A stretch of DNA of 51,952 nucleotides from the NCBI GenBank assembly GCA_048885925.1, contig JBHLLG010000018.1:1-51952 (forward strand). The letters are read 5' to 3'. Source of the DNA: Candidatus Hermodarchaeota archaeon. Lineage in GTDB: Archaea > Asgardarchaeota > Lokiarchaeia > Sigyniarchaeales > SOKP01. The notes under the pieces are model-generated. The model did not search any database. It saw only the letters and a list, made by a program, of their open reading frames with translations, and was not told the DNA's origin. This document shows positions 2,366 through 43,207 of this stretch, in pieces; positions within the stretch are counted from its first letter, which is position 1; each line of letters opens with the position of its first letter. Both the position numbers and the translations under genes were made by a program.

Positions 2366-2962
2366 ATGAGTTATGAACAAAAAAGTGTATTATTTAATTT
2401 TAAAACCGTAATTTGCGGTGCTAGTTCAGTAGGTAAAACTTCATTATTTAATCGATACTGTTTTAACTCATTCAATTTTGATACTTCTCCAACCATAGGT
2501 ATAAATTTTCATTCAGTTTATTTACAGATCGATTTTTCAATGGAAACAGATGATTTAAAAGAAAATTATGTAGTAAATTCTATATTTGACTTTGGAGGGC
2601 AAGAAAGATTTGCTCCTTTAATTCCTAAGTTTATAGATGGTGCTAATGGGGCATTATTAGTATTTGATTTAGTTAATTATCTTTCTTTTGAACAGTTGGA
2701 TTTTTGGTATGAGAATTTAAAACAAAAAGCAGTAAATTCTGAAATTCCAATAATTTTAGTTGGAAGTAAAGATGATTTAATTAAAGCATCTCCTAAATCT
2801 GAAATTATAGATGAAGATTTGATTTATCGTTATGTAAAAGATAAGAATTTAGATGGTTTTCATAGAACCTCAGCGTTAGAAAATCATAATGTATTGGAAG
2901 TATTTAAAAAATTAAATAATCTTATGTTAAAAAGATTACATAAACCGTATGTTGTAATATAA
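2366..2962 (+). CDS. Ras-superfamily (Rab-like) small GTPase
   Basis: G1 GASSVGKTS, G2 PTIG, G3 DFGGQERF, G4 variant GSKDD, G5 TSAL; no C-terminal cysteine. Confidence 0.9.
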   Translation: MSYEQKSVLFNFKTVICGASSVGKTSLFNRYCFNSFNFDTSPTIGINFHSVYLQIDFSMETDDLKENYVVNSIFDFGGQERFAPLIPKFIDGANGALLVFDLVNYLSFEQLDFWYENLKQKAVNSEIPIILVGSKDDLIKASPKSEIIDEDLIYRYVKDKNLDGFHRTSALENHNVLEVFKKLNNLMLKRLHKPYVVI

Positions 2963-10086: not shown

Positions 10087-11703
10087 ATGTCAGAGGATTT
10101 CAAACGTCAGAATGATCAAGATTCGAATAAAGAGAAACTAGAAAATAGTAAGGAACATGAAGAAATTAAAGAACAGGAACCATTAGAAAAAATAAGTAAA
10201 CCTGTTTTAATAAGGGCAGAAGCCTACAAGACTATAATTTTATACGCTAGTAGATATGCAAATAAATCAATACCTCCAGAAGAATGGAAAGAAATATATG
10301 GTATATTAATAGGTCGATCTGATGAAGAATTAGTGTATGTCGAAAGCGCGGAAGCCTTAACCTTTGGTCATGCTACAGACGTTCAATTGGATGAAAGACA
10401 TTATGGGTTTATTGAAGAAATTCAGGAAAAACTTGATAAAGAAGGAAGAGGATTTTACATGGTTGGATGGTTTCATAGTCATCCAGGGTTAAACCTATTC
10501 TTTTCTTATATAGATTTAATTAACCAACTAGGTTTTCAGCAAAATAATGATAATTTTTGCGGCTTAGTGTTTGATCATACTCTTCTAGGTACTAAAAAGG
10601 AAGAAATTATAAAAAGAGAAGATGGTTCCGAATATACTATGACAAAATACGATACTGGCTTTGAAATCTATAGAATAACTGATATAAACATGGATATTAA
10701 CGATCCGGAATATGATAATAATTATCATAAAGTTGATTATGTTGTTGATGGATTGAATAAATATTTTTTCGCAAATGTTTTATCAGAACTTTCTGCGTTA
10801 GTGACAGAAGGAAAACCATTACAATCCGCTTATAAAGAAGAATTTTCACGAGAAAAAGAACCTCATTTATCATCAGAATCAAAATCCATTGAAGAGTTAA
10901 AATCAGTTCATTATCCTTCCGAGCCAAATAACATTTCAAATAAAGAATTCTTAACTGAAATCCCCATGGTTGATAATATTGAATTTGGTGTTGATGATTT
11001 TTTTTATAGTGAAATAGATGTGAAAAAAAAACAGAAAGAGTTGAAACTAAAAAAGGAAGCTGAACAATTAATTTATGAGGGAAATAAAGCTTTTGAAAAT
11101 AAAGATTCATTTACAGGAGTTGAAAAATTCAAACAAGGAATTGAAAAATATAAAGAACTTAAAGAATTTGAAAGAATCTTAGACTTATTAAGAATTGTAT
11201 CGCAAAAGTGCATTTCAAATAATCATGTAAAATTTGCTGGAGAATTTGCTGATGATTTATATAAATTTGCTAAAAAGCAAAAACATCTTTTTTATTTAGG
11301 GGTGGCATATTATATTAAAGGGTATCTATTGTTAAAAACTGGAGAGAATGAGGTTTTAGAAGTTGCCTTAAATAAAATTCAGGATGCTGCTGTAAATTTT
11401 GAAAAAGAGGGTGATTTTGCAGGAGCAGGGATGTGTTTTAATAAAATTGGATCAATTTATCAATCAAGACTTAATAATATAGAAAATGCTTGTTTATTTT
11501 ACTCAGCCGCAGTTGAGAATTTTAATAAATCAATTCTAAAAATGCATCCTTTAAGAACGGATTTTTGGAATAAATCAGAACTTCTTATTCAGAAGATTGT
11601 AGAATTAAGAGATATCATCGAGGAACTATTACCAAATTTTGATAATCTTGAATTAAGGAATAAAATCCTTAAAGATCTCAAAAATTTACATTATAATTTT
11701 TAA
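10087..11703 (+). CDS. JAMM/MPN+ metalloprotease with C-terminal TPR/alpha-SNAP-like helical domain
   Basis: EIYGILIG ... VGWFHSHPGLNLFFSYID is a complete E..HxH-x7-S-x2-D motif; the C-terminal ~220 aa form helical repeats. Confidence 0.85.
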   Translation: MSEDFKRQNDQDSNKEKLENSKEHEEIKEQEPLEKISKPVLIRAEAYKTIILYASRYANKSIPPEEWKEIYGILIGRSDEELVYVESAEALTFGHATDVQLDERHYGFIEEIQEKLDKEGRGFYMVGWFHSHPGLNLFFSYIDLINQLGFQQNNDNFCGLVFDHTLLGTKKEEIIKREDGSEYTMTKYDTGFEIYRITDINMDINDPEYDNNYHKVDYVVDGLNKYFFANVLSELSALVTEGKPLQSAYKEEFSREKEPHLSSESKSIEELKSVHYPSEPNNISNKEFLTEIPMVDNIEFGVDDFFYSEIDVKKKQKELKLKKEAEQLIYEGNKAFENKDSFTGVEKFKQGIEKYKELKEFERILDLLRIVSQKCISNNHVKFAGEFADDLYKFAKKQKHLFYLGVAYYIKGYLLLKTGENEVLEVALNKIQDAAVNFEKEGDFAGAGMCFNKIGSIYQSRLNNIENACLFYSAAVENFNKSILKMHPLRTDFWNKSELLIQKIVELRDIIEELLPNFDNLELRNKILKDLKNLHYNF

Positions 11704-19346: not shown

Positions 19347-20033
19347 ATGAATATTGCTGAAGTTCTAAAAAATAAGATCAAATCAGATCAAACTGTTCTA
19401 ACTGAATTTGAATCAAAAGAGCTATTACGAGAAATTGGAATCCCAGTTCCAGCTCAAAAATTAACTGTTTCTAAAAATGATACCTTATCTGCAGCAGAAG
19501 AAATCGGTTTCCCCATAGTATTAAAACTAATAGCGGAAGATATTGTCCATAAATCTGATACTGGCGCTGTAAAGCTTGGTTTAAAAACAAAAGATGATGT
19601 AGAAAAAGCTTATGATGACCTAATGAAAATACCATCTCAAAAAGACAAAAAAATCTCGGTACAAAAAATGGCAGATACCCCTATAACAGAACTTATCATT
19701 GGTATGACCACTGATCCTCAGTTTGGACCTGCTTTAATGTTTGGAATTGGTGGCATTTTAGTAGAGCTTTTGGAAGATGTTAGCTTTCGAATAGCCCCAA
19801 TTACAGAATATGATGCCAATGAAATGATTCATGAAATTAAAGGATTCCCTATTCTTGATGGATATCGCGGTAAACCAAAAGCAGATATCCATGCAATTGT
19901 AGAAGTATTAATGAAAATATCAGATCTTGTTACCAAACATGAAGAAATCAATGAAATGGATTTAAATCCAGTATTTATTTATGATAAAGGCTTAATTTGT
20001 GTTGATGCAAGGATTATCTTAAAAAAAAATTAA
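19347..20033 (+). CDS. acdB: ADP-forming acetyl/acyl-CoA synthetase beta subunit (ATP-grasp)
   Basis: LTEFESKELL, IGFPIVLK, HKSDTGAV, DPQFGPALMFGIGGILVE, EMDLNP, VDAR. Confidence 0.88.
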   Translation: MNIAEVLKNKIKSDQTVLTEFESKELLREIGIPVPAQKLTVSKNDTLSAAEEIGFPIVLKLIAEDIVHKSDTGAVKLGLKTKDDVEKAYDDLMKIPSQKDKKISVQKMADTPITELIIGMTTDPQFGPALMFGIGGILVELLEDVSFRIAPITEYDANEMIHEIKGFPILDGYRGKPKADIHAIVEVLMKISDLVTKHEEINEMDLNPVFIYDKGLICVDARIILKKN

Positions 20034-20283: not shown

Positions 20284-23200
20284 ATGAATAAATCTGAAAT
20301 AAAAAAGAAGATAAAGGCATTAGGCTTTCTGATCTTGATTTTAGGGTCATTTACAACATACTTTAATATAATATTAAAGAATATTCTCTCTAACGATTCT
20401 CAATTTGATGATGATGTGAATGAGAAATCTGAAAGTTTTGATTTCAGTTTTGGAAACCTTGAAGTAGCAGCATATTCCTCAACTTCTAGTGGTACTGGAG
20501 AGGAATTAAATATTTCTTTACAGCAATCAATAGTAAATGAAGGTTCTCCTTTATTTAGAATTACAAATGCTTCGGATCCAAATAATAATACTTTTAATAT
20601 TGATTGTCCTGATGATAATACTTTCAATACAACATTCTCACAAATTACTATGCAAGATATATACGCCCCAAATGCAAGTTTAATAATCGAAGACTACTCT
20701 TCACATAGTTTTAAAGAATTTGTAACATTACCAAGGTTAGCTTCTTTTACAGTTACTGGTAATGGGTATTTAGAAAATATATCAATAGAAATAATAGAAA
20801 CAGGTGCAATTTCTGATACAGGTAATGTTCGTCTAAGATTATATAACTCAACTTGGGATTCAACTAGAAGCAAACCAGGAGGAACTGTTAATGATTATAT
20901 TACAATAGGAGACATTCCTACCCCAGATAACCCAAATGGTTGGTATAATTTAACAAATGCTCATATATTCTTAAATAATTCTAAAACAGAAAATAATACA
21001 TGGTTTATTGGTTGCACCGACCAAGGCAGTAATATTGTTTTGAATTGGTGGTACACAAATGATGATGCAGGAGGAGTGAATGATGGAGATGATGAAACTG
21101 ATTGTTGGGAACACGATGGGAGTAACTGGGTATTTAGCACGGATGTTACATGGGGTTGTGGAATTGATTTTCATTTAAAAGTAGACTTAAGTCCTGAAGA
21201 TAACATCCCTCTTCCAACTGACATTAATCTTAAAGTAAATAATTCTATTGTGAATAATGCTGGATCAGGTTCAGGAATTTGGACTTATGAAAGAGTTTTT
21301 TCAAGTCTTCCCGATAAATTAGATTATATATTAACGGCTGACTGGTGGAATGTATCGTGCAATATTGTTAAAATTGAAGCGAATTATACAAAAACTGATT
21401 TAAAGGCAATTCCCAGTTTTGAAGTTTTAGGAAGTGGTCTAACTATACAATGGAATGCTTCTGCTGGTAATTTAAATTATTTCGATCCGGATTACCTATA
21501 TTATAAAATAAATTTTACTGTTCCTTCAACTTGGAGTAATTTAAAGGCATTTAATGATACAGTTGAGTTAACAGATAATACAACATTAGGAGAACCGCTA
21601 GGGGGATATATGGAATATCAAATTTATAATGCCAGTAATGGCCCCAATTGGTTTATTACAGCAGAATCTCAAAACTTACTTGACGATATTAATATGTTTG
21701 TTGATACTATTGAAACTACTATTACGAATTATGACAAGACTATCGATATTATAGGAAACTTTACTGAATCAATTAGTGATGGCAATGCTACAGTTGAAAT
21801 ATATAGCCCTGATTTCACAGGTAATTATTTGAACTTTACTAATTTTAACGATACAATTACAACAAATGATGAAGTTTCTCTTGGTTCTTGGACAATAAAA
21901 AACACAGCTAAAAATTATGGTCAATTTAGAGTTCAAGTATTTTGGAGTAATAATACAGCAGTAGGTTTTGTTGAAAAGAATTTAACAATATGGGCAATAA
22001 CAGATTTACTATTAATTGAACCTGCAATTGATGAAAGTTATTATAGTAATGATGTTTTCAATATTACTTTTTATTATAATGATACCGGTCAAAGTTTACC
22101 AATTGAAAATGCTCAATTTAATGATAATAGCTCAGTTCCATTAACATATTCTCCTAATGGGACAGCTGGATTCTATACAACAGAAATTATTGTTGATGAT
22201 TTTAATTGGGGTTGGAATTTTATCGAATTTAATGCTTCAAGAACTTATTATAATGAAGCTTCTGTTGTCTTCTCATTTCAAAAAATAATCAATACCACTA
22301 TTTCGCCATCGAACATTAAGAATTTTGGAGACATTATTAAAGGAGATACGGTGTCTTATGAATTTAATTATTCAGATATAAATGATGATTTTATTGAAGG
22401 AGCAGATATTCAGGAGGTTGATGTAGATTCCAGCTTTATTTGGTTTTGGACTCCAATAGGCCAAGGAAATTATTCTATTGAACTTAATACTACGAATGTA
22501 GATGCAACTCCGTTTAAATACATTTGCAATTTCAGTATTTCTGCTACTGGAAATGAAACACAAATTATTTCTTTACAACTCAGAGTAATCAACACTCAGA
22601 CTTTTATAGATATACAATCGTATAATTCAATGCTTATTAGAAAGGATCGCCTTAATCAAACAGTTGTTTTCTATTTTAATGATACTGATAACAATAAGGT
22701 TATCACGGGATTAACTACAAATGATATTATTGTAAAAGACAACCAAACAGGATCATCAAGATCTAAATGGCTATATCTGACTGGAACTCCAGGCCTTTAT
22801 GAGTTAAATATAAGTACATCTGGGTTAAATTCTGGCTGGATAAGGTTTGAGTTAAATGTATCACTCGAACCAAATTATAATTGGAGCTTAAACTTTATTA
22901 CTTTTTATCTGAGAGGAAATCTTACTGATATACCTAACATTTTTCTTTCAGACCCTGGAGGTGAAGGAACTTTAACTGCAATAGCGGGTAAATATCCTAT
23001 ATTTGAAGAACGCGATTTGTATGTAGATTTCAATATAACTGATACAGATTATAATAATAATTTGATTAAATCAGAAGTTAATTCCTACTTAATAGAATAT
23101 ATTGAAATAGGAAATCCTACAAATCAAGGAACTCTAACAGAAACTATAAGTTTTGATGCAAATACTAATTCATTCAAAGGATATATTTCAATTACGGATT

Positions 23201-25002
23201 TACCTTCAATAGGCAATTATGCATTAACAGTTAAAGTTAATAAAATTAATTACGAAGAAGCTAGTATTAATTTTAATATAACAATAAAAGCAAGATTTAA
23301 TGTAGAGTTACAAATAATCTCTAAACCTTCTGACGTAACTGCCGGTGATACATTTAGAATAGTATTTAGAGCACAATATAATAATGGTACTAATTGGCTA
23401 CCTTTAATTGGTTCTACTGTTATAATTACACCTACTTTCGATGGCATAACATCATCAGAAATTCTAACCAAATCTACTAATAGTAGCGGTGGGCTATTTT
23501 TTGATATAACTGTAGATGCTGATGTTCGCAATATCAGTTTATCAGTTAGATTAGAAGGTGAATATTATCATGTTGGGGAAATTTTAACCATTTCTGATAT
23601 TAACATTATTCCTTTACGTCGTGGATTGACTTTTGGGGACCTCGTACCAGGTTTAATAACCACTCTTATTGTTATTGCTGCTGCTGGAGCTTCAGTTTCA
23701 ATCTATCGAGGTGTGATTGTTCCCAAAAAACGTGAAAGAACTCGAATTCTTACCGAAGTAAAAACTATCTTTGACGATGCTATAAACTTAGAACATATTT
23801 TAGTACTTTATAAGGGTACGGGTACATGTATCTATTTCAAATCATTCGGTTCAGAACAGATTGATCCTGAATTAATTTCAGGCTTCATTTCTGCTATAAG
23901 CAGTTTTGGAAAAGATTTGGTAAGCCAAGAAGAACTTAATGAAATAACATATGGAGATAAAATGTTGTTGCTTTCAGATGGTGAATTTATCCGAGTGGCT
24001 TTAGTTCTTGGTAAAAAAGCTTCAATTATTTTAAGAAGAAACTTGATGGACTTTATACATGTTTTTGAAAGACATTACGACAAGGACCTTCCAAGTTGGA
24101 GGGGTCAATTAAATATCTTTAGAGATGCGGGAGTTATTGTTGATGATAAGTTGAATACTTCAATTATATTACCACATGAAATCACTTACGAATATTCTAC
24201 CATAAAGGTATTAAAAAAGTCTCAATCAAAAGAAGTGTTAAAAATCGCGAATACTTTAATGAAGGAATCAGAAAGAAATTTCTTCTTTATTGCAACCCTA
24301 TTAAAAGAAGCTGCAGAAAAAACAAGCAAAGATACACCAGAAATTTTTATGGGTATTAAAGAATTACGAGATACGAAAATACTAATGCCAATAGAGATAT
24401 CTACCATTGAAACCAAACCAATTTCTCAACAAGAATTAAACCTTATTAATCAAAAAGTTTCAGAATTAGTGAATTTAAGTCGCGAAGAACGCCAAAAACT
24501 AGTTAATGACCTTTCCCAGATGGGTCCTGCTGAAAGAGAAGCATATTTTGTAAGTTTAACTGAACGACATGAAATTGTTTCTGCTCCAATTGAATCAAAA
24601 ATTGGAGCTGCTGTAATTGAAACTCCAAAAGGAGCTAAAAAAGAAATTAAAAACTTAAAAAAGAATGCTTTAGCAGCAAAAAAAGAGAAGGATTACGAAA
24701 AGAGCATTAAAGTCTTTCAGAATGCTTCAAAAATCGCTTTAAATTGGGAATTAATAAAAGAATCCCAAGAAATCGATGATCTAGTGCGTTTGACTAAGAT
24801 TGAGGATCTTACAACTAAAATGAAAAATCTTGAAAAAGAAGCAAAATTAGCTGTTAAAAAAGAAAGCTATACTGAAGCAGCCCAAAAATACAAAATATCT
24901 TCAAAAATTGCATCAGAAATATTTAAATTGGGAGTAACTGATATGACAAAAGAAGTTAAGCGACTATCAAATAAATCGAAAGAATATGAAAAGCTAGTTT
25001 GA
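20284..25002 (+). CDS. 1572-aa receptor-like membrane protein: large beta-rich ectodomain, TM, cytoplasmic longin-like and helical domains
   Basis: N-terminal hydrophobic anchor (aa ~12-31); ~1080 aa Asn/Thr/Ser-rich region with many NxS/T; TM LVPGLITTLIVIAAAGASVSIY then KKRERTR; LEHILVLYKGTGTCIY..IDPELISGFISAISSF longin-like signature. Confidence 0.8.
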   Translation: MNKSEIKKKIKALGFLILILGSFTTYFNIILKNILSNDSQFDDDVNEKSESFDFSFGNLEVAAYSSTSSGTGEELNISLQQSIVNEGSPLFRITNASDPNNNTFNIDCPDDNTFNTTFSQITMQDIYAPNASLIIEDYSSHSFKEFVTLPRLASFTVTGNGYLENISIEIIETGAISDTGNVRLRLYNSTWDSTRSKPGGTVNDYITIGDIPTPDNPNGWYNLTNAHIFLNNSKTENNTWFIGCTDQGSNIVLNWWYTNDDAGGVNDGDDETDCWEHDGSNWVFSTDVTWGCGIDFHLKVDLSPEDNIPLPTDINLKVNNSIVNNAGSGSGIWTYERVFSSLPDKLDYILTADWWNVSCNIVKIEANYTKTDLKAIPSFEVLGSGLTIQWNASAGNLNYFDPDYLYYKINFTVPSTWSNLKAFNDTVELTDNTTLGEPLGGYMEYQIYNASNGPNWFITAESQNLLDDINMFVDTIETTITNYDKTIDIIGNFTESISDGNATVEIYSPDFTGNYLNFTNFNDTITTNDEVSLGSWTIKNTAKNYGQFRVQVFWSNNTAVGFVEKNLTIWAITDLLLIEPAIDESYYSNDVFNITFYYNDTGQSLPIENAQFNDNSSVPLTYSPNGTAGFYTTEIIVDDFNWGWNFIEFNASRTYYNEASVVFSFQKIINTTISPSNIKNFGDIIKGDTVSYEFNYSDINDDFIEGADIQEVDVDSSFIWFWTPIGQGNYSIELNTTNVDATPFKYICNFSISATGNETQIISLQLRVINTQTFIDIQSYNSMLIRKDRLNQTVVFYFNDTDNNKVITGLTTNDIIVKDNQTGSSRSKWLYLTGTPGLYELNISTSGLNSGWIRFELNVSLEPNYNWSLNFITFYLRGNLTDIPNIFLSDPGGEGTLTAIAGKYPIFEERDLYVDFNITDTDYNNNLIKSEVNSYLIEYIEIGNPTNQGTLTETISFDANTNSFKGYISITDLPSIGNYALTVKVNKINYEEASINFNITIKARFNVELQIISKPSDVTAGDTFRIVFRAQYNNGTNWLPLIGSTVIITPTFDGITSSEILTKSTNSSGGLFFDITVDADVRNISLSVRLEGEYYHVGEILTISDINIIPLRRGLTFGDLVPGLITTLIVIAAAGASVSIYRGVIVPKKRERTRILTEVKTIFDDAINLEHILVLYKGTGTCIYFKSFGSEQIDPELISGFISAISSFGKDLVSQEELNEITYGDKMLLLSDGEFIRVALVLGKKASIILRRNLMDFIHVFERHYDKDLPSWRGQLNIFRDAGVIVDDKLNTSIILPHEITYEYSTIKVLKKSQSKEVLKIANTLMKESERNFFFIATLLKEAAEKTSKDTPEIFMGIKELRDTKILMPIEISTIETKPISQQELNLINQKVSELVNLSREERQKLVNDLSQMGPAEREAYFVSLTERHEIVSAPIESKIGAAVIETPKGAKKEIKNLKKNALAAKKEKDYEKSIKVFQNASKIALNWELIKESQEIDDLVRLTKIEDLTTKMKNLEKEAKLAVKKESYTEAAQKYKISSKIASEIFKLGVTDMTKEVKRLSNKSKEYEKLV

Positions 25003-25236: not shown

Positions 25237-25707
25237 ATGAAGAATAAAGAAATTGAAAATGATGAATTTGAGAATTCAAATTTGATCAACCAAAATAGAG
25301 CTATTAATGATATAAAAGATAAAATTATACGCATTATAAATGATGATAAAAGCATTGCTGAACTTGAGGAAACCAAAGGTATACAAAAAGCAGTAAAAGT
25401 TAAAACAACCGTAATAGAACAAGATGAAAAGCAAGAATTAAAAATTTTATCTTTAATTTCAGAAAAAGATGAAAGTCTCAAGATTCCATTAAGTTTAAAG
25501 GAAGAAGTCGAGAGAATTATTTTAAAAATCCTTTATGATGAAAAATCAGTTAAATCATTAAAGCTTTTTATTGAAAAAGTCTTGGAGAGAGCAATGGAGA
25601 AAAAAATAACTATTTCTGAAAAATCTATAAGTTTAATAATTTATCAAATGGATAATGATAAAAAAATACAATTCACTCAGAGAGAAGGCTGGAAAATAAG
25701 AATATAG
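25237..25707 (+). CDS. Hypothetical protein with probable C-terminal winged helix
   Basis: ERIILKILY...ISEKSISLIIYQMDNDKKIQFTQREGWKI has a helix-helix-helix-beta-hairpin pattern. Confidence 0.6.
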   Translation: MKNKEIENDEFENSNLINQNRAINDIKDKIIRIINDDKSIAELEETKGIQKAVKVKTTVIEQDEKQELKILSLISEKDESLKIPLSLKEEVERIILKILYDEKSVKSLKLFIEKVLERAMEKKITISEKSISLIIYQMDNDKKIQFTQREGWKIRI

Positions 25708-30177: not shown

Positions 30178-31098
30178 GTGGAAAACGATAAGAAAAAAAA
30201 GATAATCGAATCAGTCCCAAACTACAGCGAAGGAACAGATAGTGAAAAACTTGAACAAATTGTTTCTAAAATTAGAAATACTCCAAATACCCGTATTGTA
30301 GATGTTCAATATGATTCTAACTACAATAGGGCGGTAGTTACTTTTGTTGGGACTCCTGAAGCTGTTTTAACTGCAAATATTGATGCCGCAAAAAAAGCTA
30401 TTGAATTAATTGATATGAATATACACAAAGGTCAACATCCTCGAATAGGAGCTGTTGATGTAGTCCCATTTGTTCCTGCCCAAAATGTAACCATAGAAGA
30501 GTGTATAGATCTATCAATAAAATTTTCGGAAGCAATGGCAAAAGAAGGGGTACCCATTTATCTCTATGAAGAGTCTGCTAGGAAAATGGAGCGAAAGAAT
30601 ATTGATAACATACGAAAAGGTGAATATGAAAAATTAAAAGAAAAGATTAAAACTGATCCTGAACGAAAACCTGATTATGGACCATCGGAATTCCATCCTA
30701 CTGCTGGTGCAATAATAACTGGAGCAAGATACCCATTAATTAGTTTTAATATCAATTTAGGTACAAACGATATTAGAATTGCTAAAAAAGTTGCGAAAGC
30801 TATACATTTAAAATCAGGTGGGCTCGTAAATATTAAAGCGATGGGAACAGAAATAAAGAATCAAGATTATGTACAAGTTGGGATTTCAAATATTAATTAT
30901 CAGAAAACTCCACTATACAGACAAATGGAACTAGTAAGGATTGAAGCTGCTCGTTTTGGTGTTTCTGTAATAGGGTCAGAATTAGTAGGAGTATTACCGC
31001 TAGATGCCGTTCTGAATTCATTAGAATATTATTTACAACTTGAAAAACCAGATAAACTAGAAGAAAAACATTTGCTAGAGTATTATTTCGATTTTTAA
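30178..31098 (+). CDS. ftcd: Glutamate formiminotransferase (FT domain only)
   Basis: IESVPNYSEG, NRAVVT, HKGQHPRIGAVDVVPFVP, IRKGEYE, PDYGP, GAR. Confidence 0.92.
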   Translation: MENDKKKKIIESVPNYSEGTDSEKLEQIVSKIRNTPNTRIVDVQYDSNYNRAVVTFVGTPEAVLTANIDAAKKAIELIDMNIHKGQHPRIGAVDVVPFVPAQNVTIEECIDLSIKFSEAMAKEGVPIYLYEESARKMERKNIDNIRKGEYEKLKEKIKTDPERKPDYGPSEFHPTAGAIITGARYPLISFNINLGTNDIRIAKKVAKAIHLKSGGLVNIKAMGTEIKNQDYVQVGISNINYQKTPLYRQMELVRIEAARFGVSVIGSELVGVLPLDAVLNSLEYYLQLEKPDKLEEKHLLEYYFDF

Positions 31099-31102
31099 GA
31101 AT

Positions 31103-32419
31103 TCAAGATGTTGAATCATGATTAACTACGATAATCCCATTTTTTATAACCTTTGAAACTAAATTTACTCCAAAATGATAAGGTAAGAATTCATGGTTTG
31201 GCACATTAAAAATTATTAAGTCAGCTTTTTTTCCAATTTCAAGACTTCCAATTTCATCTTGTTTTTGAATTGCACAAGCTCCATTGATTGTCGCAGCTGT
31301 GAGAGCTTCTGCTGGTGAGAGTTTCATATTATAACATGCTAATGTAATAATCATCTGCATTGATTCCGTCCAACAATTAGGATTTAGATCTGTTGCTAAA
31401 GCTATCGGTAATTCCATTTCAATCATTTTTCTTGCAGGAGCGTAATCTTTCAACATTAAGCAAAAAGGAGTTCCCGGTAAAAGAGTCGCTATAGTGCCAG
31501 ATTTTATCATAGCATTTAAACCTTTATCATTAGATTTTAGTAAATGACTAGCTTGAATTACTCTTAACTCTGAAGCTAATAAGGCACCATTAGTATCTTC
31601 AATTTCATCTATATGGATTTGAGGTTTTAAACCGTATCTAATTGCAGTTTTTAATATTTTGCGTGTTTGTTTAATTGTAAAGATTCCTTTTTCGCAGAAT
31701 ACATCGCAAAATTCAGCTAAACCTTCTTTCACAACTTTAGGAATCATATCCGAAATAATTAAGTCAACGTATTTATCTGGATTCTCTTGATATTCTGGGG
31801 GAATAGCATGTGCTCCTAAGAATGTTGGGATTAGATCTAATGGATGTTCTTCTTTTAAGATTTGTATTGCTTTTAATTGTTTAATTTCACTTTCCGTAGT
31901 TAAACCGTACCCAGATTTTATTTCGACGGTAGTGGTTCCATAAGACATCATCCTATCCAAGATATTCTTTCCATTTTCAACTAATTTTTCTAATGATGCT
32001 CTTCTAGTATAATTAACTGTCTTTAAAATTCCTCCTCCTGAATTTAAAATATCCATATATGTTTTTCCAGCAAGTTTCATTGAGAAATCGGTTTCACGTG
32101 TACCATCAAAAATAAGGTGAGTATGCGGATCAACGAATCCAGGTGTTACAAGTTTATTTGTGGCATCTAATTTGATTGGAATTTTTCCAAATTCAAATTT
32201 TGATATTAATTCTGCCGTAGTACCGATAAATACAATTCTATCCTCTTTAACTGCTATTGCCCCATCATTAATAATTGCTAACTCAGACATATTTTTACCA
32301 ATTCTTGGGGCTCCTAATTTAGTATTCATGGTAACTAATTCATTTATATGAAACACAACAAGATCAGGCTCAATATCAGAGAAAATTTCTTTTTTTAAAT
32401 ATGTTGATGCTACAAACAA
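31103..32419 (-). CDS. hutI: Imidazolonepropionase
   Basis: PGFVDPHTH, GGGIL, GTTTVEIKSGYGL, TFLGAHAIP, CDVFCEKG, ALATDLNP. Confidence 0.95.
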   Translation of the reverse strand: MFVASTYLKKEIFSDIEPDLVVFHINELVTMNTKLGAPRIGKNMSELAIINDGAIAVKEDRIVFIGTTAELISKFEFGKIPIKLDATNKLVTPGFVDPHTHLIFDGTRETDFSMKLAGKTYMDILNSGGGILKTVNYTRRASLEKLVENGKNILDRMMSYGTTTVEIKSGYGLTTESEIKQLKAIQILKEEHPLDLIPTFLGAHAIPPEYQENPDKYVDLIISDMIPKVVKEGLAEFCDVFCEKGIFTIKQTRKILKTAIRYGLKPQIHIDEIEDTNGALLASELRVIQASHLLKSNDKGLNAMIKSGTIATLLPGTPFCLMLKDYAPARKMIEMELPIALATDLNPNCWTESMQMIITLACYNMKLSPAEALTAATINGACAIQKQDEIGSLEIGKKADLIIFNVPNHEFLPYHFGVNLVSKVIKNGIIVVNHDSTS

Positions 32420-32425
32420 ATTAAT

Positions 32426-33946
32426 TTACCTCAAAAATTCTTGAGTGATATTTAATAATTTATTACTTCTTATAATTTCTATTGCTGAATCAATATATTC
32501 CGAAAGAATTGTATCTTCATTTATATGGGGAATCCTCTCCCGGATATATTTATAACATGCTTCTAACGTGTTGCTAGATTTTAGAGGTCTTCTATAATCA
32601 AATGCTTGTGTTGAGCATAAAAGTTCAATTGCTAAAATTTTTTCAAGGTTGCATATGATTTTAAGAGCTTTTCTAGCACTTATAGGACCCATACTTACAT
32701 GGTCTTCTTGTCCTCCACCTGTGGGTATACTATCTACACTTGCTGGAAAACAAAGAGATTTATTCTCACTAACTAAAGCAGCTGAAGTATACTGAGTCAT
32801 CATAAATCCTGAATTTAATCCTGCATTTTCAATTAGATATAATGGTAAACCCCATTTACCTTCTAATAATAAAAATATACGACGATCAGAAATATTTCCA
32901 AGTTCAGAAGCAGCCATGCTAACATAATCTATAGGTAAAGCTAACGGTTGACCATGAAAATTGCCACCGCTATAAGTTTCATTTTCATTAAAAACAATAG
33001 GATTATCAGTGACGGAATTTATTTCACAATCTACTTTTTTTTTTAAATGAGTTAGGGCATCTCGAGATGCACCATGAACTTGTGGAATACATCGAATAGA
33101 ATATGGATCTTGTACTCTTCCACAGTTTTTATGGGATTCTACTAATTGAGAATCTTCTAAAAACTTCCTCATTCTTTTAGCTACAATTACAGCACCTTCG
33201 TGGGGTCTTAAATTGATAAGTTTTTCTGCAAATGGTTGAGGAGATCCTAGATAACCTTCTAATGTTAAAGCTCCAATCAGATCAGCATGATCAAGACAAT
33301 TGGAAAAGTTTTCAATAATTTTTATAGCACAAGCAGCCATAAATTGTGTTCCATTAATTAATGCTACTCCCTCTTTTGCTTGTAAATTTAGTGGTTTCAA
33401 ATCGTGTTCTTCAAGAATTTTCTCTGTTGGAATGAATTCACTGCCATTTTTCGATAAAAATCCTAATCCAATCAAAGGAAGGAATAAATGAGCCAAAGGT
33501 GATAAATCTCCTGAAGCTCCTACTGAACCTTGCTCAGGAACTAATGGAATAATATCGTTATCAATATGCCAACATATTCGTTCTACTACGTTCAAAGATA
33601 CTCCAGAATTACCCATAGATAATGCTTGTACCTTCAAGATCATCATTAACTTAGCAATTTCAAGATCAACTGGAGAACCTACTCCAACACTATGACTCTT
33701 AAGAAGATTTTCTTGTAATTTTCCAGTTTCCTCTTTTGAAATTCTGGTAGTGCAAAGAGATGCAAATCCTGTATTTATACTATATACTAATTTTTCTCCT
33801 TTAGCTATTGATTGTACGATATTATAATTTTTAACAATTTGCTGTTTTACCTCATCATTTAAAACCGCTTTTAGATGACCTCTTGAGATTTTTAAAGCAA
33901 TATCTGGGGTCAAATGATCAATTCCATATTTAAATTTATCATTCAT
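32426..33946 (-). CDS. hutH: Histidine ammonia-lyase
   Basis: MIO-forming GSVGASGDL, KEGVALINGTQ, QDPYSIRCIPQVHGA, GGNFHGQP, QEDHVSMG; ATG 33946 preferred over TTG 33997. Confidence 0.95.
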   Translation of the reverse strand: MNDKFKYGIDHLTPDIALKISRGHLKAVLNDEVKQQIVKNYNIVQSIAKGEKLVYSINTGFASLCTTRISKEETGKLQENLLKSHSVGVGSPVDLEIAKLMMILKVQALSMGNSGVSLNVVERICWHIDNDIIPLVPEQGSVGASGDLSPLAHLFLPLIGLGFLSKNGSEFIPTEKILEEHDLKPLNLQAKEGVALINGTQFMAACAIKIIENFSNCLDHADLIGALTLEGYLGSPQPFAEKLINLRPHEGAVIVAKRMRKFLEDSQLVESHKNCGRVQDPYSIRCIPQVHGASRDALTHLKKKVDCEINSVTDNPIVFNENETYSGGNFHGQPLALPIDYVSMAASELGNISDRRIFLLLEGKWGLPLYLIENAGLNSGFMMTQYTSAALVSENKSLCFPASVDSIPTGGGQEDHVSMGPISARKALKIICNLEKILAIELLCSTQAFDYRRPLKSSNTLEACYKYIRERIPHINEDTILSEYIDSAIEIIRSNKLLNITQEFLR

Positions 33947-34035
33947 TTTAATTCTATATTTTATTATTAAATAGATCAAAATGTTGATATATTCCAAAAT
34001 TAAAATTTTTTAAATAATTTAAATCGATATGTTTT

Positions 34036-36057
34036 TCATGTGAGCTTTTTTAAGTATTTATCTACAATATCTTCTAAGAGTTTATCTTTTGCAATAAAGG
34101 GTAATGTTATATGACCTCTCTCTTCATTTTTGATATTCCAATTGTAAGCCGTCTCAAAAGCATTAGGATTTCTAGCCCAACTTCTTCTAGCTATACCTCC
34201 CATAACATCCCATTCAATTGCATTTTTGATAACATTATCAATCCTTTCAGATCCATCTAAAACTAATCCAAAACCCCCATTAAAACATTTTCCAATACCA
34301 ACACCACCTCCATTAGAAAGAACTACATATGTCATACCTCTAACAGCATTTCCAGTAAAACAATGAACCGCCATTTCTGCCATTACATTACTTCCGTCTC
34401 TAATATTGGATGTTTCTCTAAATGGTGAATCTGTTCCAGAAACATCATGGTGATCTCTTCCTAACATGATTGGTCCTATTTCTCCTTTTCTTACTAAAGC
34501 ATTAAATTTAAGAGCAATATTTTTGCGTTCTAAAGCATCGGCGTACAAAATTCTTGCTTTAGTTCCAACGACTAGTCTATTTTTTTTAGCATCTCGAATC
34601 CAATAATAATTATCCCTATCTTGAGCTCTTTTTTCAGGGTTAATATAACTCATTGCTGCTTGATCAGTTTTATCTAAATCTTCTTCTTTGCCTGAAAGGC
34701 ATACCCATCTAAATGGTCCATATCCATAATCAAAACAAATTGGACCCATTATATCTTCTACATAAGATGGAAAAATAAACCCTTCTGATGGATCTATTCC
34801 ATTTTTAGCAATATCTATAACACCAGCGTCAAATACAGCTTTCATAAAGGAATTCCCATAATCCCAAAAATGCATTCCTCTCTCTGCCATTATTTTAATA
34901 AACCTGAATTGGTCTTTTAAAGAATCATCAATAAGTTGTTTAAATCTCTCAATATTGGTATTAATTAAATCTCTACCTTCTTTAAAAGATATTTGGTAAG
35001 GTGTATATCCACCTTCATAAACAGCATGACAAGATGTTTGATCTGAAGCAAGTTCTACTTTAATATTTTTCTCAACAACATATTTCCATAAATTAACAAC
35101 ATTTCCATGATATGCAATTGATAAAGGTCTTAATGTTTTTCTTGCATCTTCAACCCATTCAAATATTTCATCTAAATCATCTGAGATCCGAGAAACCCAT
35201 CCTTGTTCATGTCGAGTCTTTATTCTAGATTCATCAACTTCTGCTATAACACCAATCCCTCCAGCTATTTCTATTGCTTTAGCTTGTGCTCCACTCATCC
35301 CGCCTAACCCAGATGATAAATACAATTTACCTCTTAAGTCTTTATCTTGATGTATATTTAAATATAACCTTCCTGCATTTAATAAAGTAATATAAGTACC
35401 ATGAACAATACCTTGAGGTCCAATATACATCCATCCGCCAGCTGTCATTTGACCGTAGTTAGCAACACCTAAAGCTGTAGCTAAAGAAAAATCATCAGGA
35501 TTATCAAACATTCCCACCATTAAACCGTTTGTAGAAATTACTCTTGGAGCATTAGAAGAAGTTGGAAAAAGTCCCACTGGGTGTCCAGAAGCGATAACAA
35601 GTGTCTGAGTTTCAGTTAACAGTTCAAGATATTTTTTCACAAGACGATATTGCATCCAATTTTGAAAAACTTGACCGCTTTCACCATATGTTGTTAATTC
35701 ATATGGATATAACGCCACATCAAAATCGAGATTGTTGTCGATCATAACTTGTAAAGCTTTTCCCTCAAGAGTATTTCCTTTATATTCATCTATGGGTTTT
35801 GCTTTAATATTCCCTTTAGGTCTATAACGATATCCATAAATTCTTCCTCTTTTAATTAGTTCATCCAAGAATTCTGCTACCAATTTTTCATGTAACTCTG
35901 AAGGAATATATCTAAGAGCATTTTTTAAAGCTAATTTTGTTTGAGTGGGATTTAGATTATATCCTCTAGATGGTGCTCGCCTTATACCCTCAATAAATCT
36001 AGGATGTATTGGTAGTTCATTAGATAATTTGATTCTCATTGCTTGTGAAATATCCAT
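34036..36057 (-). CDS. hutU: Urocanate hydratase, long (~670 aa) form
   Basis: GQMTAGGWMYIGPQGIVHGT, SGLGGMSGAQ, SDQTSCH, GRDHHDVSGTDSPFRET; GGAG SD favours ATG 36057. Confidence 0.95.
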   Translation of the reverse strand: MDISQAMRIKLSNELPIHPRFIEGIRRAPSRGYNLNPTQTKLALKNALRYIPSELHEKLVAEFLDELIKRGRIYGYRYRPKGNIKAKPIDEYKGNTLEGKALQVMIDNNLDFDVALYPYELTTYGESGQVFQNWMQYRLVKKYLELLTETQTLVIASGHPVGLFPTSSNAPRVISTNGLMVGMFDNPDDFSLATALGVANYGQMTAGGWMYIGPQGIVHGTYITLLNAGRLYLNIHQDKDLRGKLYLSSGLGGMSGAQAKAIEIAGGIGVIAEVDESRIKTRHEQGWVSRISDDLDEIFEWVEDARKTLRPLSIAYHGNVVNLWKYVVEKNIKVELASDQTSCHAVYEGGYTPYQISFKEGRDLINTNIERFKQLIDDSLKDQFRFIKIMAERGMHFWDYGNSFMKAVFDAGVIDIAKNGIDPSEGFIFPSYVEDIMGPICFDYGYGPFRWVCLSGKEEDLDKTDQAAMSYINPEKRAQDRDNYYWIRDAKKNRLVVGTKARILYADALERKNIALKFNALVRKGEIGPIMLGRDHHDVSGTDSPFRETSNIRDGSNVMAEMAVHCFTGNAVRGMTYVVLSNGGGVGIGKCFNGGFGLVLDGSERIDNVIKNAIEWDVMGGIARRSWARNPNAFETAYNWNIKNEERGHITLPFIAKDKLLEDIVDKYLKKLT

Positions 36058-36226
36058 ATTTTTAACTAACTCCAATTAATATTTAAGTTATATTATTTAT
36101 AGCGTATAAATAAATTATGTGAATAATATTTCAATTAAATTACTTTTTCAGAAAGAGAAGATTAGAAACTTATAACAAATTGTAAAAAAATATTTGAAAA
36201 ATTGAAATCATTTTTTGAGTTAAAAC

Positions 36227-37960
36227 TCATTTTAATATTTTTATGCCTCGAAGTTCAAGCTTATGTAAAAAATCTAGATAACCCTTTAAATTATTTTTTT
36301 CTATGTTTAGGTATTTAATAGATGGCAACGATTCGAGCGACTCTGGTAATTGGCTTAAATGATTTGTTCTTAAGAATAAAAATTTTAAAGATTTTAGGAA
36401 TCCTATTGATTCTGGGAGTGTAGATAACTTATTGTTTCCTAAATATAAATATTTTAATGATTGCAAGGATCCTATAGAATCTGGAATTTCTTTTAGTTCA
36501 TTATAATAGAGATATAAATGTTTAAGCGATGTTAAAGCACCAATTGATTCAGGAATACTTGATAAACGATTCTTACCTAGATCAAGAACTTCAAGACTTG
36601 TTAAAAATCCAATTGATTTAGGGATAGTCTCTAAACGATTAAATCCTAGTATTAATGTTTTTATTGAAGGAAGATTTCCTATCGACGTGGGAAGGCTTTT
36701 TAGTTGATTTGTAGATAAATCTAATTCAAGAAGTGATTCTAGTGAACCTAACGAATCTGGAATTTCTTGTAATTCGTTTTTACTCAAATCCAATATTTTG
36801 AGAGATCCGAGCTTCCCAATTGCATCTGGAAGCTTTTCTATTTTATTGTCATACAAATTCAATTCTTTTAAAGATTTTAAAAAACCAATAGATTCAGGGA
36901 TTTCCTCTAAATCATTATTTTCAAGATTTAATGTCTCAAGATTTTTAAGATTTCCTATAGAATCGGGAATTTCGGTTAATTCATTATTATCAGATTTTAA
37001 AATTTGAAGAGTCTTAAGATTTGCTATTGATGATGGAAGTAATTTTAATTTATTATTTGATAATTCTAATCGAAGTAATGACTTCAAAGAACCTATTGAA
37101 TCAGGAAGCTTTTGTAAATTATTAGATGAAAGATTCAAATTATTTAATGAAAATAGTGATCCGATTGAATCTGGGAGTTTTATTAATTTATTTGATATCA
37201 AGCCTAAATATATTAGATTTCCTAATTGTCCAATAGAGTCTGGTAATTTGCTTAAATTATTACCTTTTAAGAAAAGTGAGGTCAGAAAAGATAACTTACC
37301 AATAGTTTCTGGAAGTTCAGTTAGCATATTGTTTCTTAAATTCAATCTTTTCAATGATGATATATTACCTAATGATTCTGGAAGATTTATTAAGTTGTTA
37401 TTTCCTAAATATAGAATTTCTAAAGAAGGAAGGTCGCCTATTGAAATAGGTAATTTTTCAATATTATTTCCACTTAAATCTAGAGTTTTTAAATTTCTCA
37501 TCTTACCCAAAGTGGTAGGAATACTTTCTAACTCATTTCCGCTTATATCTAAAATTTCTAGAGATTCGAGAGATCCAAGGGATTGTGGTAAATTTTTTAA
37601 ATGGTTCGATTCTAAATGTAATTCTTTTAGTTGGGTAAGAAATCTAATCGAGTCAGGTAGTGTATTTAACTCATTTTCACTTAAATCTAAAATCTCAAGA
37701 GAATTAAGGGAAGTTAATTCTTCTGATATGTTCTCTACATTATTTCCTCTAAGATAAAGATGTTTAAGTGATGAAAATTCCTTTATTTCCTTTGGAATAT
37801 TTGATAATCTACAAGAAAATAAGCTCAAGCCAATTATGGTTTGATCTCGCATATTATATCCGAGAGAATATCGTTCTAAAGGATAACTTTCTGATATTGA
37901 CTCTCCAATATAATCTTCGATTATCTCTAGTGCTTTTTGTTCTTTATCTAAAAGATTCAT
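36227..37960 (-). CDS. Leucine-rich repeat protein (22 x 23-aa repeats)
   Basis: Consensus LxxLPxSIGxLxxLxxLxLxxNx repeated without gaps from about aa 52 to 557. Confidence 0.95.
   Translation of the reverse strand: MNLLDKEQKALEIIEDYIGESISESYPLERYSLGYNMRDQTIIGLSLFSCRLSNIPKEIKEFSSLKHLYLRGNNVENISEELTSLNSLEILDLSENELNTLPDSIRFLTQLKELHLESNHLKNLPQSLGSLESLEILDISGNELESIPTTLGKMRNLKTLDLSGNNIEKLPISIGDLPSLEILYLGNNNLINLPESLGNISSLKRLNLRNNMLTELPETIGKLSFLTSLFLKGNNLSKLPDSIGQLGNLIYLGLISNKLIKLPDSIGSLFSLNNLNLSSNNLQKLPDSIGSLKSLLRLELSNNKLKLLPSSIANLKTLQILKSDNNELTEIPDSIGNLKNLETLNLENNDLEEIPESIGFLKSLKELNLYDNKIEKLPDAIGKLGSLKILDLSKNELQEIPDSLGSLESLLELDLSTNQLKSLPTSIGNLPSIKTLILGFNRLETIPKSIGFLTSLEVLDLGKNRLSSIPESIGALTSLKHLYLYYNELKEIPDSIGSLQSLKYLYLGNNKLSTLPESIGFLKSLKFLFLRTNHLSQLPESLESLPSIKYLNIEKNNLKGYLDFLHKLELRGIKILK
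36290..37807 (-). repeat. 69-bp-period degenerate coding tandem repeat (LRR array)
   Basis: 22 consecutive 23-codon units counted in the translation; diverged at DNA level. Confidence 0.85.
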
Positions 37961-41722: not shown

Positions 41723-43207
41723 TTATATGTAATTTACAATCTTACTTTTACTTTTTGATTCTTGAACTAAGATTCTAAAATTCTTAACCATATCCTCTAA
41801 GCTTGGAAAATCTGGTATACTATGCTGGTTTAATAATTCAGAGACTCTTTGAACCTCTTTAACTTCACCAATTAACCAAAAAAATACTGGTTTTGAAGTA
41901 TGATTTATAATTTCTATTAGATTATCCCAATTATCCATGTTTCTAAAATGTCTTGAACAAAACATCATATTAAAGATTCCCTCAATTTGTGGCTCATTAA
42001 GTATAATTTTATATACTTTATCCAATACAATTGCAGGGTTGATTTTATTCATCATAGCTTTTTCCATTGTTGGCCAAATGTCCACAAGTGCAAATTGATT
42101 TGGTGGCATCCATTCAGGAAATAGTCCTTTAAGTGTTTTATATGCTTTATCTCCAAATAAAGGAAAATTTAATCCATGTTGCATAGTAAGATCGGCTGAT
42201 ATGGTACCAGCACCACCTGAACCTGCTATCATTGATACATTACCATGGATAGGCAAATTTTTCCCCGTTTTATATATCATAGAAAACGTTCTAGCAAATT
42301 GAAATAATTCATTAAAATCTTTTGCTTGAATTACACCAGATTGTTTAATTATTGCATTTATTAATTGTGTATTTTCAGCAAGTGCCCCTGTATGACTTAG
42401 TGAAGCTTTTTTCCCTTGAGAAGTCAGTCCTCCTTTAACTAAAATAATTGTTTTATTTGGTATACTTTTTACTTTTCTACACAACTCTATAAATTTTCTT
42501 GGATCTTTAAATGATTCAAGATACATAGCAAAAACATTTACAGTTGGATCTTCTATCAAATATTCAAGAAAATCTATTTCGCTCAAATCCATTTTATTTC
42601 CGACTGAACATGAATATCTGAAACCAATTTCAGGATATTTTTCCATTATATACATAAGATAACCTCCATTTAACATCCCTGATTGGCTAATTATAGCTAT
42701 ATTCCCGCGTTTGTAGTTAGTGAAAACACCAAAACTAGAAAAGAATCCACCTTTAGACTCACTATCACTATCTCCATCAATCCTAGTTAATCCCATGCAA
42801 TTTGGACCTACTATTCTGATTTTTGAGAAATTTTGTGTAATTTTTAGGATTTTATCTTTTAATTCTAACCCTTCCTCTCCAACTTCTTCAAAACCTGAGG
42901 CTTCTATTATTGCTCCTTTTACACCTTTTTTAATACATTCCTCTAAAAGGCTAGGAATTTTTCTATTTGAAACATAAAAAATTGCTAAGTCAATATTATT
43001 GTCTATATCTAAAATAGATTTTTTAAATTCTAAATCAAATATCTTACCATTGGAGTTGGGATTAATAGGGTAAATTTTTCCCTTAAAATTATTTTGTACA
43101 AGATTATTTACAATTCGATATCCTCCTTTTACTGGATTTATTGAAGCACCAATTACAGCTACAGATTTTGGATTTAAAAATAAATCAATTATATTATTTT
43201 TCGCCAA
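41723..43207 (-). CDS. acdA: ADP-forming acyl-CoA synthetase alpha subunit
   Basis: FLNPKSVAVIGAS, SGFEEVG, RIVGPNCMG, ISQSG, SVGNKMD, phospho-His SHTGALA, SGGAG. Confidence 0.88.
   Translation of the reverse strand: MAKNNIIDLFLNPKSVAVIGASINPVKGGYRIVNNLVQNNFKGKIYPINPNSNGKIFDLEFKKSILDIDNNIDLAIFYVSNRKIPSLLEECIKKGVKGAIIEASGFEEVGEEGLELKDKILKITQNFSKIRIVGPNCMGLTRIDGDSDSESKGGFFSSFGVFTNYKRGNIAIISQSGMLNGGYLMYIMEKYPEIGFRYSCSVGNKMDLSEIDFLEYLIEDPTVNVFAMYLESFKDPRKFIELCRKVKSIPNKTIILVKGGLTSQGKKASLSHTGALAENTQLINAIIKQSGVIQAKDFNELFQFARTFSMIYKTGKNLPIHGNVSMIAGSGGAGTISADLTMQHGLNFPLFGDKAYKTLKGLFPEWMPPNQFALVDIWPTMEKAMMNKINPAIVLDKVYKIILNEPQIEGIFNMMFCSRHFRNMDNWDNLIEIINHTSKPVFFWLIGEVKEVQRVSELLNQHSIPDFPSLEDMVKNFRILVQESKSKSKIVNYI

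Follow-up and report, generated by a model that had tools for sequence, protein, structure and literature searches.

A predicted longin-type cassette at the inner membrane face of a large Asgard archaeal surface protein

In eukaryotes, longin domains form the core of vesicle coats, of SNAREs and of the platforms that act on Rab and Rag GTPases as guanine-nucleotide-exchange factors (GEFs) and GTPase-activating proteins (GAPs). Asgard archaea encode many soluble longin and roadblock proteins together with scores of small GTPases, and their cell surface is thought to mediate syntrophic contacts. Here we describe a gene of a Candidatus Hermodarchaeota archaeon whose product is predicted to carry a longin domain directly beneath the membrane, at the cytoplasmic side of a large surface ectodomain. 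The gene lies in a stretch of 51,952 nucleotides (hereafter the window; contig JBHLLG010000018.1 of assembly GCA_048885925.1, positions 1 to 51,952, forward strand), at 20284–25002 (+), where it forms one open reading frame (ORF) of 1572 amino acids plus stop with no internal stop. The contig (C18) belongs to a 3.9-Mb, 181-contig genome with a GC content of about 29%. An earlier note, made from the DNA letters alone, had proposed a receptor-like giant composed of a glycosylated ectodomain, a transmembrane helix, and cytoplasmic longin-like, winged-helix and MIT/TPR-like parts, and all ten sequence motifs that it quoted were located in this ORF where it had placed them.

A hydropathy scan found only two hydrophobic segments in the whole protein. 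The first (aa 12–32) belongs to a Lys-rich N terminus (aa 1–32; 20284–20379, +) that may serve as a signal peptide or signal anchor; the second (aa 1114–1147) has a core at aa 1120–1146 (23641–23721, +) and is the single transmembrane helix. The earlier note had placed this helix at aa ~1120–1141. Directly after it comes the basic motif KKRERTR (aa 1148–1154), within a juxtamembrane helix (aa 1147–1168; 23722–23787, +) at the head of a 426-residue tail. The protein contains 53 N-X-S/T sequons, with 49 before the transmembrane helix and 4 after it, and the same asymmetry was found in 21 of 21 full-length orthologues (35–59 outside versus 0–4 inside). Because sequons abound before the helix and are scarce after it, we place the ectodomain outside and the tail inside; the C terminus is thus cytoplasmic, as the earlier note held, in keeping with the position of KKRERTR. 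The protein is therefore a bitopic, type I-like surface protein, probably a glycoprotein, and has few cysteines (7 in 1572 residues).

For the cytoplasmic tail we built an alignment of 48 sequences, made up of orthologues from 22 genomes, 11 paralogues encoded in this genome and 14 fragments from databases. The AlphaFold2 (AF2) model of the tail has a mean predicted local distance difference test score (pLDDT) of 86.3 and a predicted template modelling score (pTM) of 0.69; residue n of the model is aa n+1146 of the protein. It runs from the juxtamembrane helix (model residues 2–22) through a beta-beta-alpha-beta-beta-beta-alpha block with further helices to residue 149, a helix/strand unit (151–229) and helices at 236–281 to a linker and five long helices (302–425). 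The second of these elements, aa 1169–1296 (model residues 23–150; 23788–24171, +), comprises strands 23–30 and 36–41, helix 49–61, strands 72–77, 80–86 and 90–96, helix 102–118 and helices at 130–149, with pLDDT mostly 79–93, and is predicted to form a five-stranded antiparallel sheet in the beta-beta-alpha-beta-beta-beta-alpha-alpha order of longin domains. Four of the quoted motifs fall here: ILVLYKGTGTCIY (aa 1172–1184), IDPELISGFISAISSF (aa 1193–1208), EITYGDKMLLL (aa 1220–1230) and GEFIRVALVL (aa 1233–1242).

Structure searches matched this block as a whole domain to solved longin domains. The best Foldseek matches of the tail are nearly all longin/roadblock platforms, led by Sec22b (TMt 0.73, root-mean-square deviation (r.m.s.d.) 3.2) and AP-2 sigma (TMt 0.62, r.m.s.d. 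2.8), with further matches to zeta-COP, VAMP7, TRAPP, Fuzzy, MON1-CCZ1, LAMTOR and MglB. In the VIA searches, the alignments to Sec22b and Ykt6 reach model residue 148–150 and so cover both C-terminal helices that define the longin topology. At the sequence level, a phmmer search with the module reached standalone proteins of 128 aa in this genome at E 5e-5 to 7e-5. One of them (E 7e-5) passes Fuz_longin_1, the Pfam model for the first longin domain of FUZ, MON1 and HPS1, with a score of 30.1 bits versus a cut-off of 26.1; other standalone paralogues graze the Pfam models Longin and Sybindin. The strand and helix order of the model and the longins returned by the searches bear out the fold that the earlier note had read from aa ~1165–1290.

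We consider it very improbable that the domain is instead a Roadblock/LC7 domain of the MglB type, acting as MglB or LAMTOR do. Foldseek lists LAMTOR, MglB and a Streptomyces Roadblock at TMt 0.43–0.57, but no Roadblock occurs among the best 50 matches listed in either VIA search, where every alpha/beta match listed is a longin or longin-like, and the two defining helices are included in the Sec22b and Ykt6 alignments. The helix that precedes the sheet, which would suit a roadblock domain, is the continuation of the transmembrane helix, and the Pfam links lead to Fuz_longin_1, Longin, Sybindin and Intu_longin_1, never to Robl_LC7. Separately, a Pfam match to GSH-S_ATP over the longin helix and strand lay below the cut-off (E 0.018 here; 14 of the 48 relatives, best 0.0012) and was treated as spurious, and a sequence search of the PDB with the tail alone gave chance-level rows only (E ≥ 1.1).

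The longin block is also the best conserved part of the protein. Across the 21 full-length orthologues, identity to this protein is 70–96% in the longin (about 90% in most), 56–89% in the winged-helix-like block and 46–97% in the distal tail, compared with 38–71% in the ectodomain; as judged by these alignments, constraint lies on the inner part, and the ectodomain diverges fast.

An exhaustive HMMER search with the tail retrieved 1067 cluster representatives at E ≤ 1e-3, 481 of them at E ≤ 1e-10. Relatives of the protein carry labels of Promethearchaeota, Lokiarchaeota and other Asgard lineages; among the 120 best longer proteins listed, every one named by its source is a 'hypothetical protein'. 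We took a census of the best 150 of the 1067. The module is present in 139, and the remaining 11 match the distal tail only. A hydrophobic helix lies within 45 aa upstream of the module in 121 of the 139, at a median gap of 10 aa, and is preceded by a part of 22–2406 aa (median 848), in which sequons occur at 4.1 per 100 aa versus 0.49 after it. The length beyond the module varies, 59 of the 121 ending within 30 aa of it and 54 extending more than 150 aa past it; 15 of the 18 proteins without a transmembrane helix have the module at their start, being either fragments or soluble forms. Among 42 diverse members, weak Ig-like Pfam matches occur outside in eight, and one soluble member is fused to CHAT. 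Within the order, the module was found in 40 of 40 genomes; in a sample spanning the phylum, it was found in 135 of 151 (72 of 73 high-quality ones) and in 48 of 52 genera.

In this genome, three rounds of profile search gave 41 proteins with the domain. Nine are bitopic ectodomain–transmembrane–module proteins of 473 to 1572 aa, with 6–10 aa between helix and module; two proteins on contig C97 carry the domain right after seven predicted helices, one on contig C117 carries it behind eleven, and all others are soluble, including cassette proteins on contigs C11, C12 and C34. On sequence comparison the transmembrane–longin–winged-helix cassette is a phylum-wide Asgard module found under many different ectodomains.

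Other arrangements of the domain also occur. Two adjacent genes on contig C97 (L072:5083–6183 and L072:6396–7538, both +) encode proteins of 366 and 380 aa with seven predicted hydrophobic helices and, immediately after them, this longin-type domain; they match no Pfam family, and a GTPase gene lies 2.4–3.8 kb away. The database representative P0091 (604 aa) is soluble and joins a CHAT domain (caspase-like protease; aa 103–372, E 2.5e-15) to a longin–winged-helix cassette (aa 381–600).

Next to the longin domain, aa 1297–1375 (24172–24408, +) contain FFIATLLKEA (aa 1334–1343) and EIFMGIKELRDTKIL (aa 1353–1367). In the AF2 model the secondary structure of this unit (strand 151–154, helix 167–183, strand 188–189, helices 190–201 and 205–217, strand 221–223) fits the winged-helix order alpha1-beta1-alpha2-alpha3-beta2(-beta3). 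The same block of one soluble paralogue gave TrmB, IclR, MarR and HTH_47 matches below the Pfam cut-offs (E 2.5e-4 to 1.8e-3), and hhalign aligned the block of the tail alignment with five TrmB-family domains of this genome over 28 columns spanning the helix-turn-helix helices (P = 0.001, probability 21%), with control comparisons against three other tail blocks and an unrelated alignment at P 0.14–0.51. A search of the ESM Atlas with the block returned no usable match, and the VIA searches barely covered model residues ~150–295. These observations support the winged helix of the earlier note weakly; we call the block winged-helix-like, an assignment that is suggested but unproven. Long Foldseek alignments to GATOR1 Nprl2/3-type chains (293–391 columns) have r.m.s.d. 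values of 13–28 Å and were not counted in favour of a common longin-plus-winged-helix architecture.

Three conserved helices follow (aa 1382–1427; model residues 236–247, 254–265 and 269–281; 24427–24564, +), then a linker of lower confidence (aa 1428–1447; 24565–24624, +) and finally an array of five antiparallel helices (aa 1448–1572; model residues 302–321, 325–341, 345–379, 383–402 and 408–425; 24625–24999, +) that contains AKKEKDYEKSIKVFQNA (aa 1465–1481) and AVKKESYTEAAQKYKIS (aa 1523–1539). Searched against the PDB, the family profile matched a consensus TPR at E 9.8e-6 and the TPR of PP5 at 0.005. Among the 48 relatives, Pfam found TPR_2 in 10 (best 5.3e-6), TPR_12 in 7 and MIT in 4 (best E 1.1e-4); in this protein alone the TPR matches (E 0.21–0.82) fall short of the cut-off. 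The array superposes on MIT domains at 1.4–1.7 Å over 64–69 residues in the VIA searches, in which TPR arrays score as high as or higher than MIT. A whole-genome scan with Pfam MIT (PF04212) did not list this protein at E ≤ 0.1, and gave the Vps4 of the same genome 57 bits. Because the MIT model misses the protein at that threshold and TPR arrays score equally or better, MIT is not distinguished here from TPR or from three-helix bundles. Of the MIT/TPR-like helical tail proposed earlier, the helices stand, five in number and TPR-like, and an MIT identity is possible. We also co-folded the tail (aa 1440–1572) with the C-terminal 73 residues of the ESCRT-III protein encoded next to Vps4; the score of 0.01 and mark of 0.32, obtained without controls, count neither for nor against binding.

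A phmmer search with aa 1381–1572 found no distal-tail paralogue in this genome. A soluble 456-aa paralogue on contig C11 (2454–3824, −) has a Cys-rich N terminus, the longin–winged-helix cassette and a tail of its own (TPR_2 E 0.0028, MIT E 0.004), and is a cytoplasmic counterpart of the giant protein's tail.

Outside the membrane, the ectodomain (aa 33–1119; 20380–23640, +; about 1087 aa) was modelled by AF2 from 31 aligned relatives with a mean pLDDT of 82.9 and is all-beta and essentially helix-free. Foldseek matched it to Ig, FN3 and macroglobulin-type sandwiches (titin I65–I70, 4e-18; A2ML1, complement C5, Robo2, contactin, DSCAM) and, among S-layer proteins, to SbsC (5ftx) and Haloferax csg (7ptp, 2.5e-12); by our estimate the model would correspond to a string of roughly ten Ig/FN3/macroglobulin-like sandwiches. 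The acidic loop noticed earlier, DDAGGVNDGDDETD, is at aa 260–273 (21061–21102, +), in a stretch modelled with low confidence (ectodomain residues 230–237). Between aa 41 and 1115 there are 47 sequons, compared with 21.7 ± 4.0 expected from 500 composition-preserving shuffles, which together with the all-beta model matches the beta-rich, glycan-site-rich ectodomain of ~1080 aa described in the earlier note. Orthologue ORFs fall into length classes near 1560, 1630, 1870–1890 and 2240–2257 aa within the genus, and other families of the order have ORFs of 1768 to 3033 aa, so that orthologues differ in how many sandwiches they contain. An export signal, a beta-sandwich ectodomain, sequon enrichment and a C-terminal membrane anchor, the features of a surface or S-layer-type glycoprotein, are all present. 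As judged from its sequons the ectodomain is probably N-glycosylated, and PMC11284389 reports the use of N-X-S/T for glycosylation in one cultured Asgard archaeon. An Ig-rod surface protein fits the Lokiarchaeial envelope as pictured in PMC9834061: one membrane, numerous surface proteins that protrude from it, and no ordered S-layer.

The same features raise the question of whether the protein is purely structural, an Ig rod in a disordered surface coat whose cassette would only dimerize or oligomerize with itself through longin–longin contacts so as to cluster and anchor it. The resemblance of the ectodomain to the S-layer and adhesin strings of SbsC and Haloferax csg favours this explanation, as do the envelope described in PMC9834061 and the title of the closest archaeal structure among the VIA matches listed (8yqg), which names a dimeric longin domain. 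A 426-aa tail is, however, superfluous for simple anchoring, and its longin retains 70–96% identity as the ectodomain drifts to about 40%; moreover, the extra winged-helix-like and TPR-like blocks are of kinds that usually bind other molecules, and soluble cassette proteins exist (for example the CHAT fusion and those on C11, C12 and C34). We therefore regard a purely structural role as quite unlikely.

Our preferred explanation, in which we have moderate confidence, is that the cassette gives surface proteins a generic handle for docking on the cytoplasmic side, a platform apposed to the membrane. The basic helix holds the longin domain about 10 residues from the inner leaflet, with the winged-helix-like block next to it, and the cassette would dock a cytoplasmic partner: another longin or roadblock protein, a small GTPase, or a factor bound by the TPR-like tail. 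According to PMC10933270 and established knowledge, longin domains pair with a longin or roadblock domain and dock small GTPases or short peptide motifs, and because known longins behave in this way a membrane-apposed docking site appears the most likely function. Once docked, the partner would control the position, clustering or sorting of the surface protein, or would sense engagement of the ectodomain, and in this orthologue group the TPR-like tail would provide another surface, one that binds peptides. The analysis shows the topology, the folds, the pattern of conservation and the spread of the family; we infer the existence and identity of such a partner, and the direction in which information would flow, as we do the glycosylation. 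Because many ectodomains with no relation to one another share the cassette, as do certain polytopic membrane domains and soluble enzymes, a generic handle is favoured over a ligand-specific signalling output.

The earlier note had preferred such an output. In that account, a ligand on the ectodomain would alter the longin platform, which would serve a small GTPase as GEF, GAP or adaptor, and ESCRT-III would be recruited by the MIT-like tail, giving a non-kinase route from the cell surface to membrane remodelling. The genome has 86 Ras-family matches and two Snf7 genes. We compared the distances of 41 module genes and 3129 background genes to 84 GTPase ORFs, distances that are censored by the many short contigs: a GTPase gene lies within 5 kb of 7 of the 41 module genes versus 14.9% of the background (p = 0.41), within 10 kb of 11 of 41 versus 23.2%, and within 1 kb of none of the 41. 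A first impression that GTPase genes lie close to module genes was ruled out by this background test. The nearest GTPase gene to the giant gene is 17 kb away, at 2366–2962 (+), and is of the Ras/Roc family. The proposed wiring to small GTPases or ESCRT-III therefore found no support in gene order, neither through enrichment near GTPase genes nor in the conserved neighbours (ACD-beta, P-type ATPase and RadA), which are housekeeping genes. This absence is weak evidence, because small GTPase genes of P. syntrophicum generally do not share operons with those for longin or roadblock proteins, according to PMC10933270. A signalling receptor of this kind seems unlikely to us, and a generic handle for docking or sorting is no less likely, because the cassette sits under many unrelated ectodomains.

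Several observations weigh against the docking platform as well. The Foldseek E-values for longins run from 1e-3 to 2e-2, with none at or below 1e-3; Pfam and NCBIfam name no family, whether the protein is scanned whole or as five pieces, and none of the 42 diverse module members matches a longin or winged-helix family in Pfam. Homology to eukaryotic longins rests on the fold and one indirect sequence link. The proximity test gave no GTPase enrichment within 5 kb, and the neighbourhood holds no hint of an operon with GTPase or ESCRT genes. As regards glycosylation, PMC11284389 describes few glycoproteins detected in P. syntrophicum.

A bolder version of the docking platform, which we hold to be doubtful, is that the cassette forms a pre-eukaryotic cargo-tail system present throughout the Asgard archaea. 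Small GTPases or ESCRT-type machinery would read this common folded handle on dozens of different surface proteins in each cell, and would thereby sort them into protrusions or vesicles or report their engagement. If true, it would be a prokaryotic forerunner of coat/adaptor–cargo or receptor–GTPase coupling with the longin on the cargo side, and the seven-helix longin proteins found in this genome would make up another class of receptor with the same output domain.

ESCRT genes are found elsewhere in the genome. On contig C1, a compact cluster (240473–244125) holds a Ras-family GTPase, ESCRT-III, Vps4 (MIT, AAA and Vps4_C) and ESCRT-II; in the ESCRT-III proteins of this order, a C-terminal amphipathic helix is conserved. 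Together with the Ras-family and Snf7 genes and the lineage labels of the protein's relatives, this cluster marks the genome as that of a Lokiarchaeia-type Asgard archaeon.

The neighbours of the giant gene include a P-type Ca-ATPase, ACD-beta just upstream, and RadA and glucose-6-phosphate isomerase downstream. ACD-beta, the ATP-grasp subunit of ADP-forming acetyl-CoA synthetase (19347–20033, +), keeps its place immediately upstream, on the strand of the giant gene, as far out as family-level relatives (L024–L026), and RadA lies downstream across the genus; an alpha-type subunit (CoA_binding, Succ_CoA_lig) is distant (41723–43207, −). Between the giant gene and RadA, a Lys/Glu-rich ORF of 156 aa without a Pfam family (25237–25707, +) lies on the strand of the giant gene and recurs in this position at 11 loci of the genus. 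Further off are a 538-aa protein with an N-terminal JAB/MPN deubiquitinase-type domain (10087–11703, +; E 7e-12) and a 577-aa protein made almost wholly of leucine-rich repeats (36227–37960, −; LRR_8 E 5e-85), adjoined by a histidine-utilisation cluster (30178–36075) of formiminotransferase, amidohydrolase, histidine ammonia-lyase-type lyase and urocanase. The DNA was found in 20 rows from 7 studies of sediment or soil metagenomes, one sample of which may be its source, and no RNA run with the sequence is listed among 23 runs.

A full-text literature search, with supplements outside its scope, found no published ectodomain–transmembrane–longin–winged-helix(–TPR) arrangement, and the arrangement is absent from the accessible parts of PMC10933270, 10.1101/2020.10.19.343400, PMC11188069 and PMC13734099; the asCOG tables of 10.1101/2020.10.19.343400 may list the family under a generic Roadblock/longin label. 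Known Asgard longin and roadblock proteins such as a Lokiarchaeota Roadblock-Longin (PDB 8yqg) and the P. syntrophicum longin–GTPase fusions of PMC10933270 differ from the membrane-anchored longin here: they are soluble, or are joined to a GTPase, TRAPPC3 or two-component domain. The word 'transmembrane' occurs 0 times in the accessible text of PMC10933270. In eukaryotic longin proteins (Sec22b, Ykt6 and VAMP7; sigma-adaptins and zeta-COP; TRAPPC1/2/4; Fuzzy, MON1 and HPS1) the setting is also different: the longin of this protein follows the transmembrane helix, C-terminal to a large ectodomain, whereas the longins of SNAREs are N-terminal with the transmembrane helix at the far C terminus. 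The protein has no SNARE motif, DENN domain or adaptor trunk, and no Pfam longin model matches it directly.

Ig-repeat surface and S-layer glycoproteins end, to our knowledge, soon after the anchor or are lipid-anchored, and we know of none with a folded 426-aa cytoplasmic module. With those of Haloferax (csg, 7ptp) and SbsC (5ftx), the protein shares a string of beta-sandwiches rich in sequons, an export signal at the N terminus and a membrane anchor towards the C terminus. With TPR proteins (LGN, PP5) and MIT domains (Vps4/CdvC MIT, 2w2u; the tandem MIT of LIP5 and calpain-7), aa 1448–1572 share an antiparallel helix array, but in this protein the Pfam models for TPR and MIT all stay below their cut-offs. 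The folds are thus already known, and the arrangement of ectodomain, transmembrane helix, longin and winged-helix-like block (with or without a TPR-like tail) is apparently new among longin-domain proteins, with a predicted role in docking. A large, phylum-wide and so far unannotated family places this longin platform at the inner membrane face under variable ectodomains; its members are candidates for the 'complex surface proteins' seen by cryo-electron tomography, and the cassette offers a testable link between the Asgard cell surface and the toolkit of GTPases and membrane remodelling, of relevance to Asgard cell biology and to eukaryogenesis.

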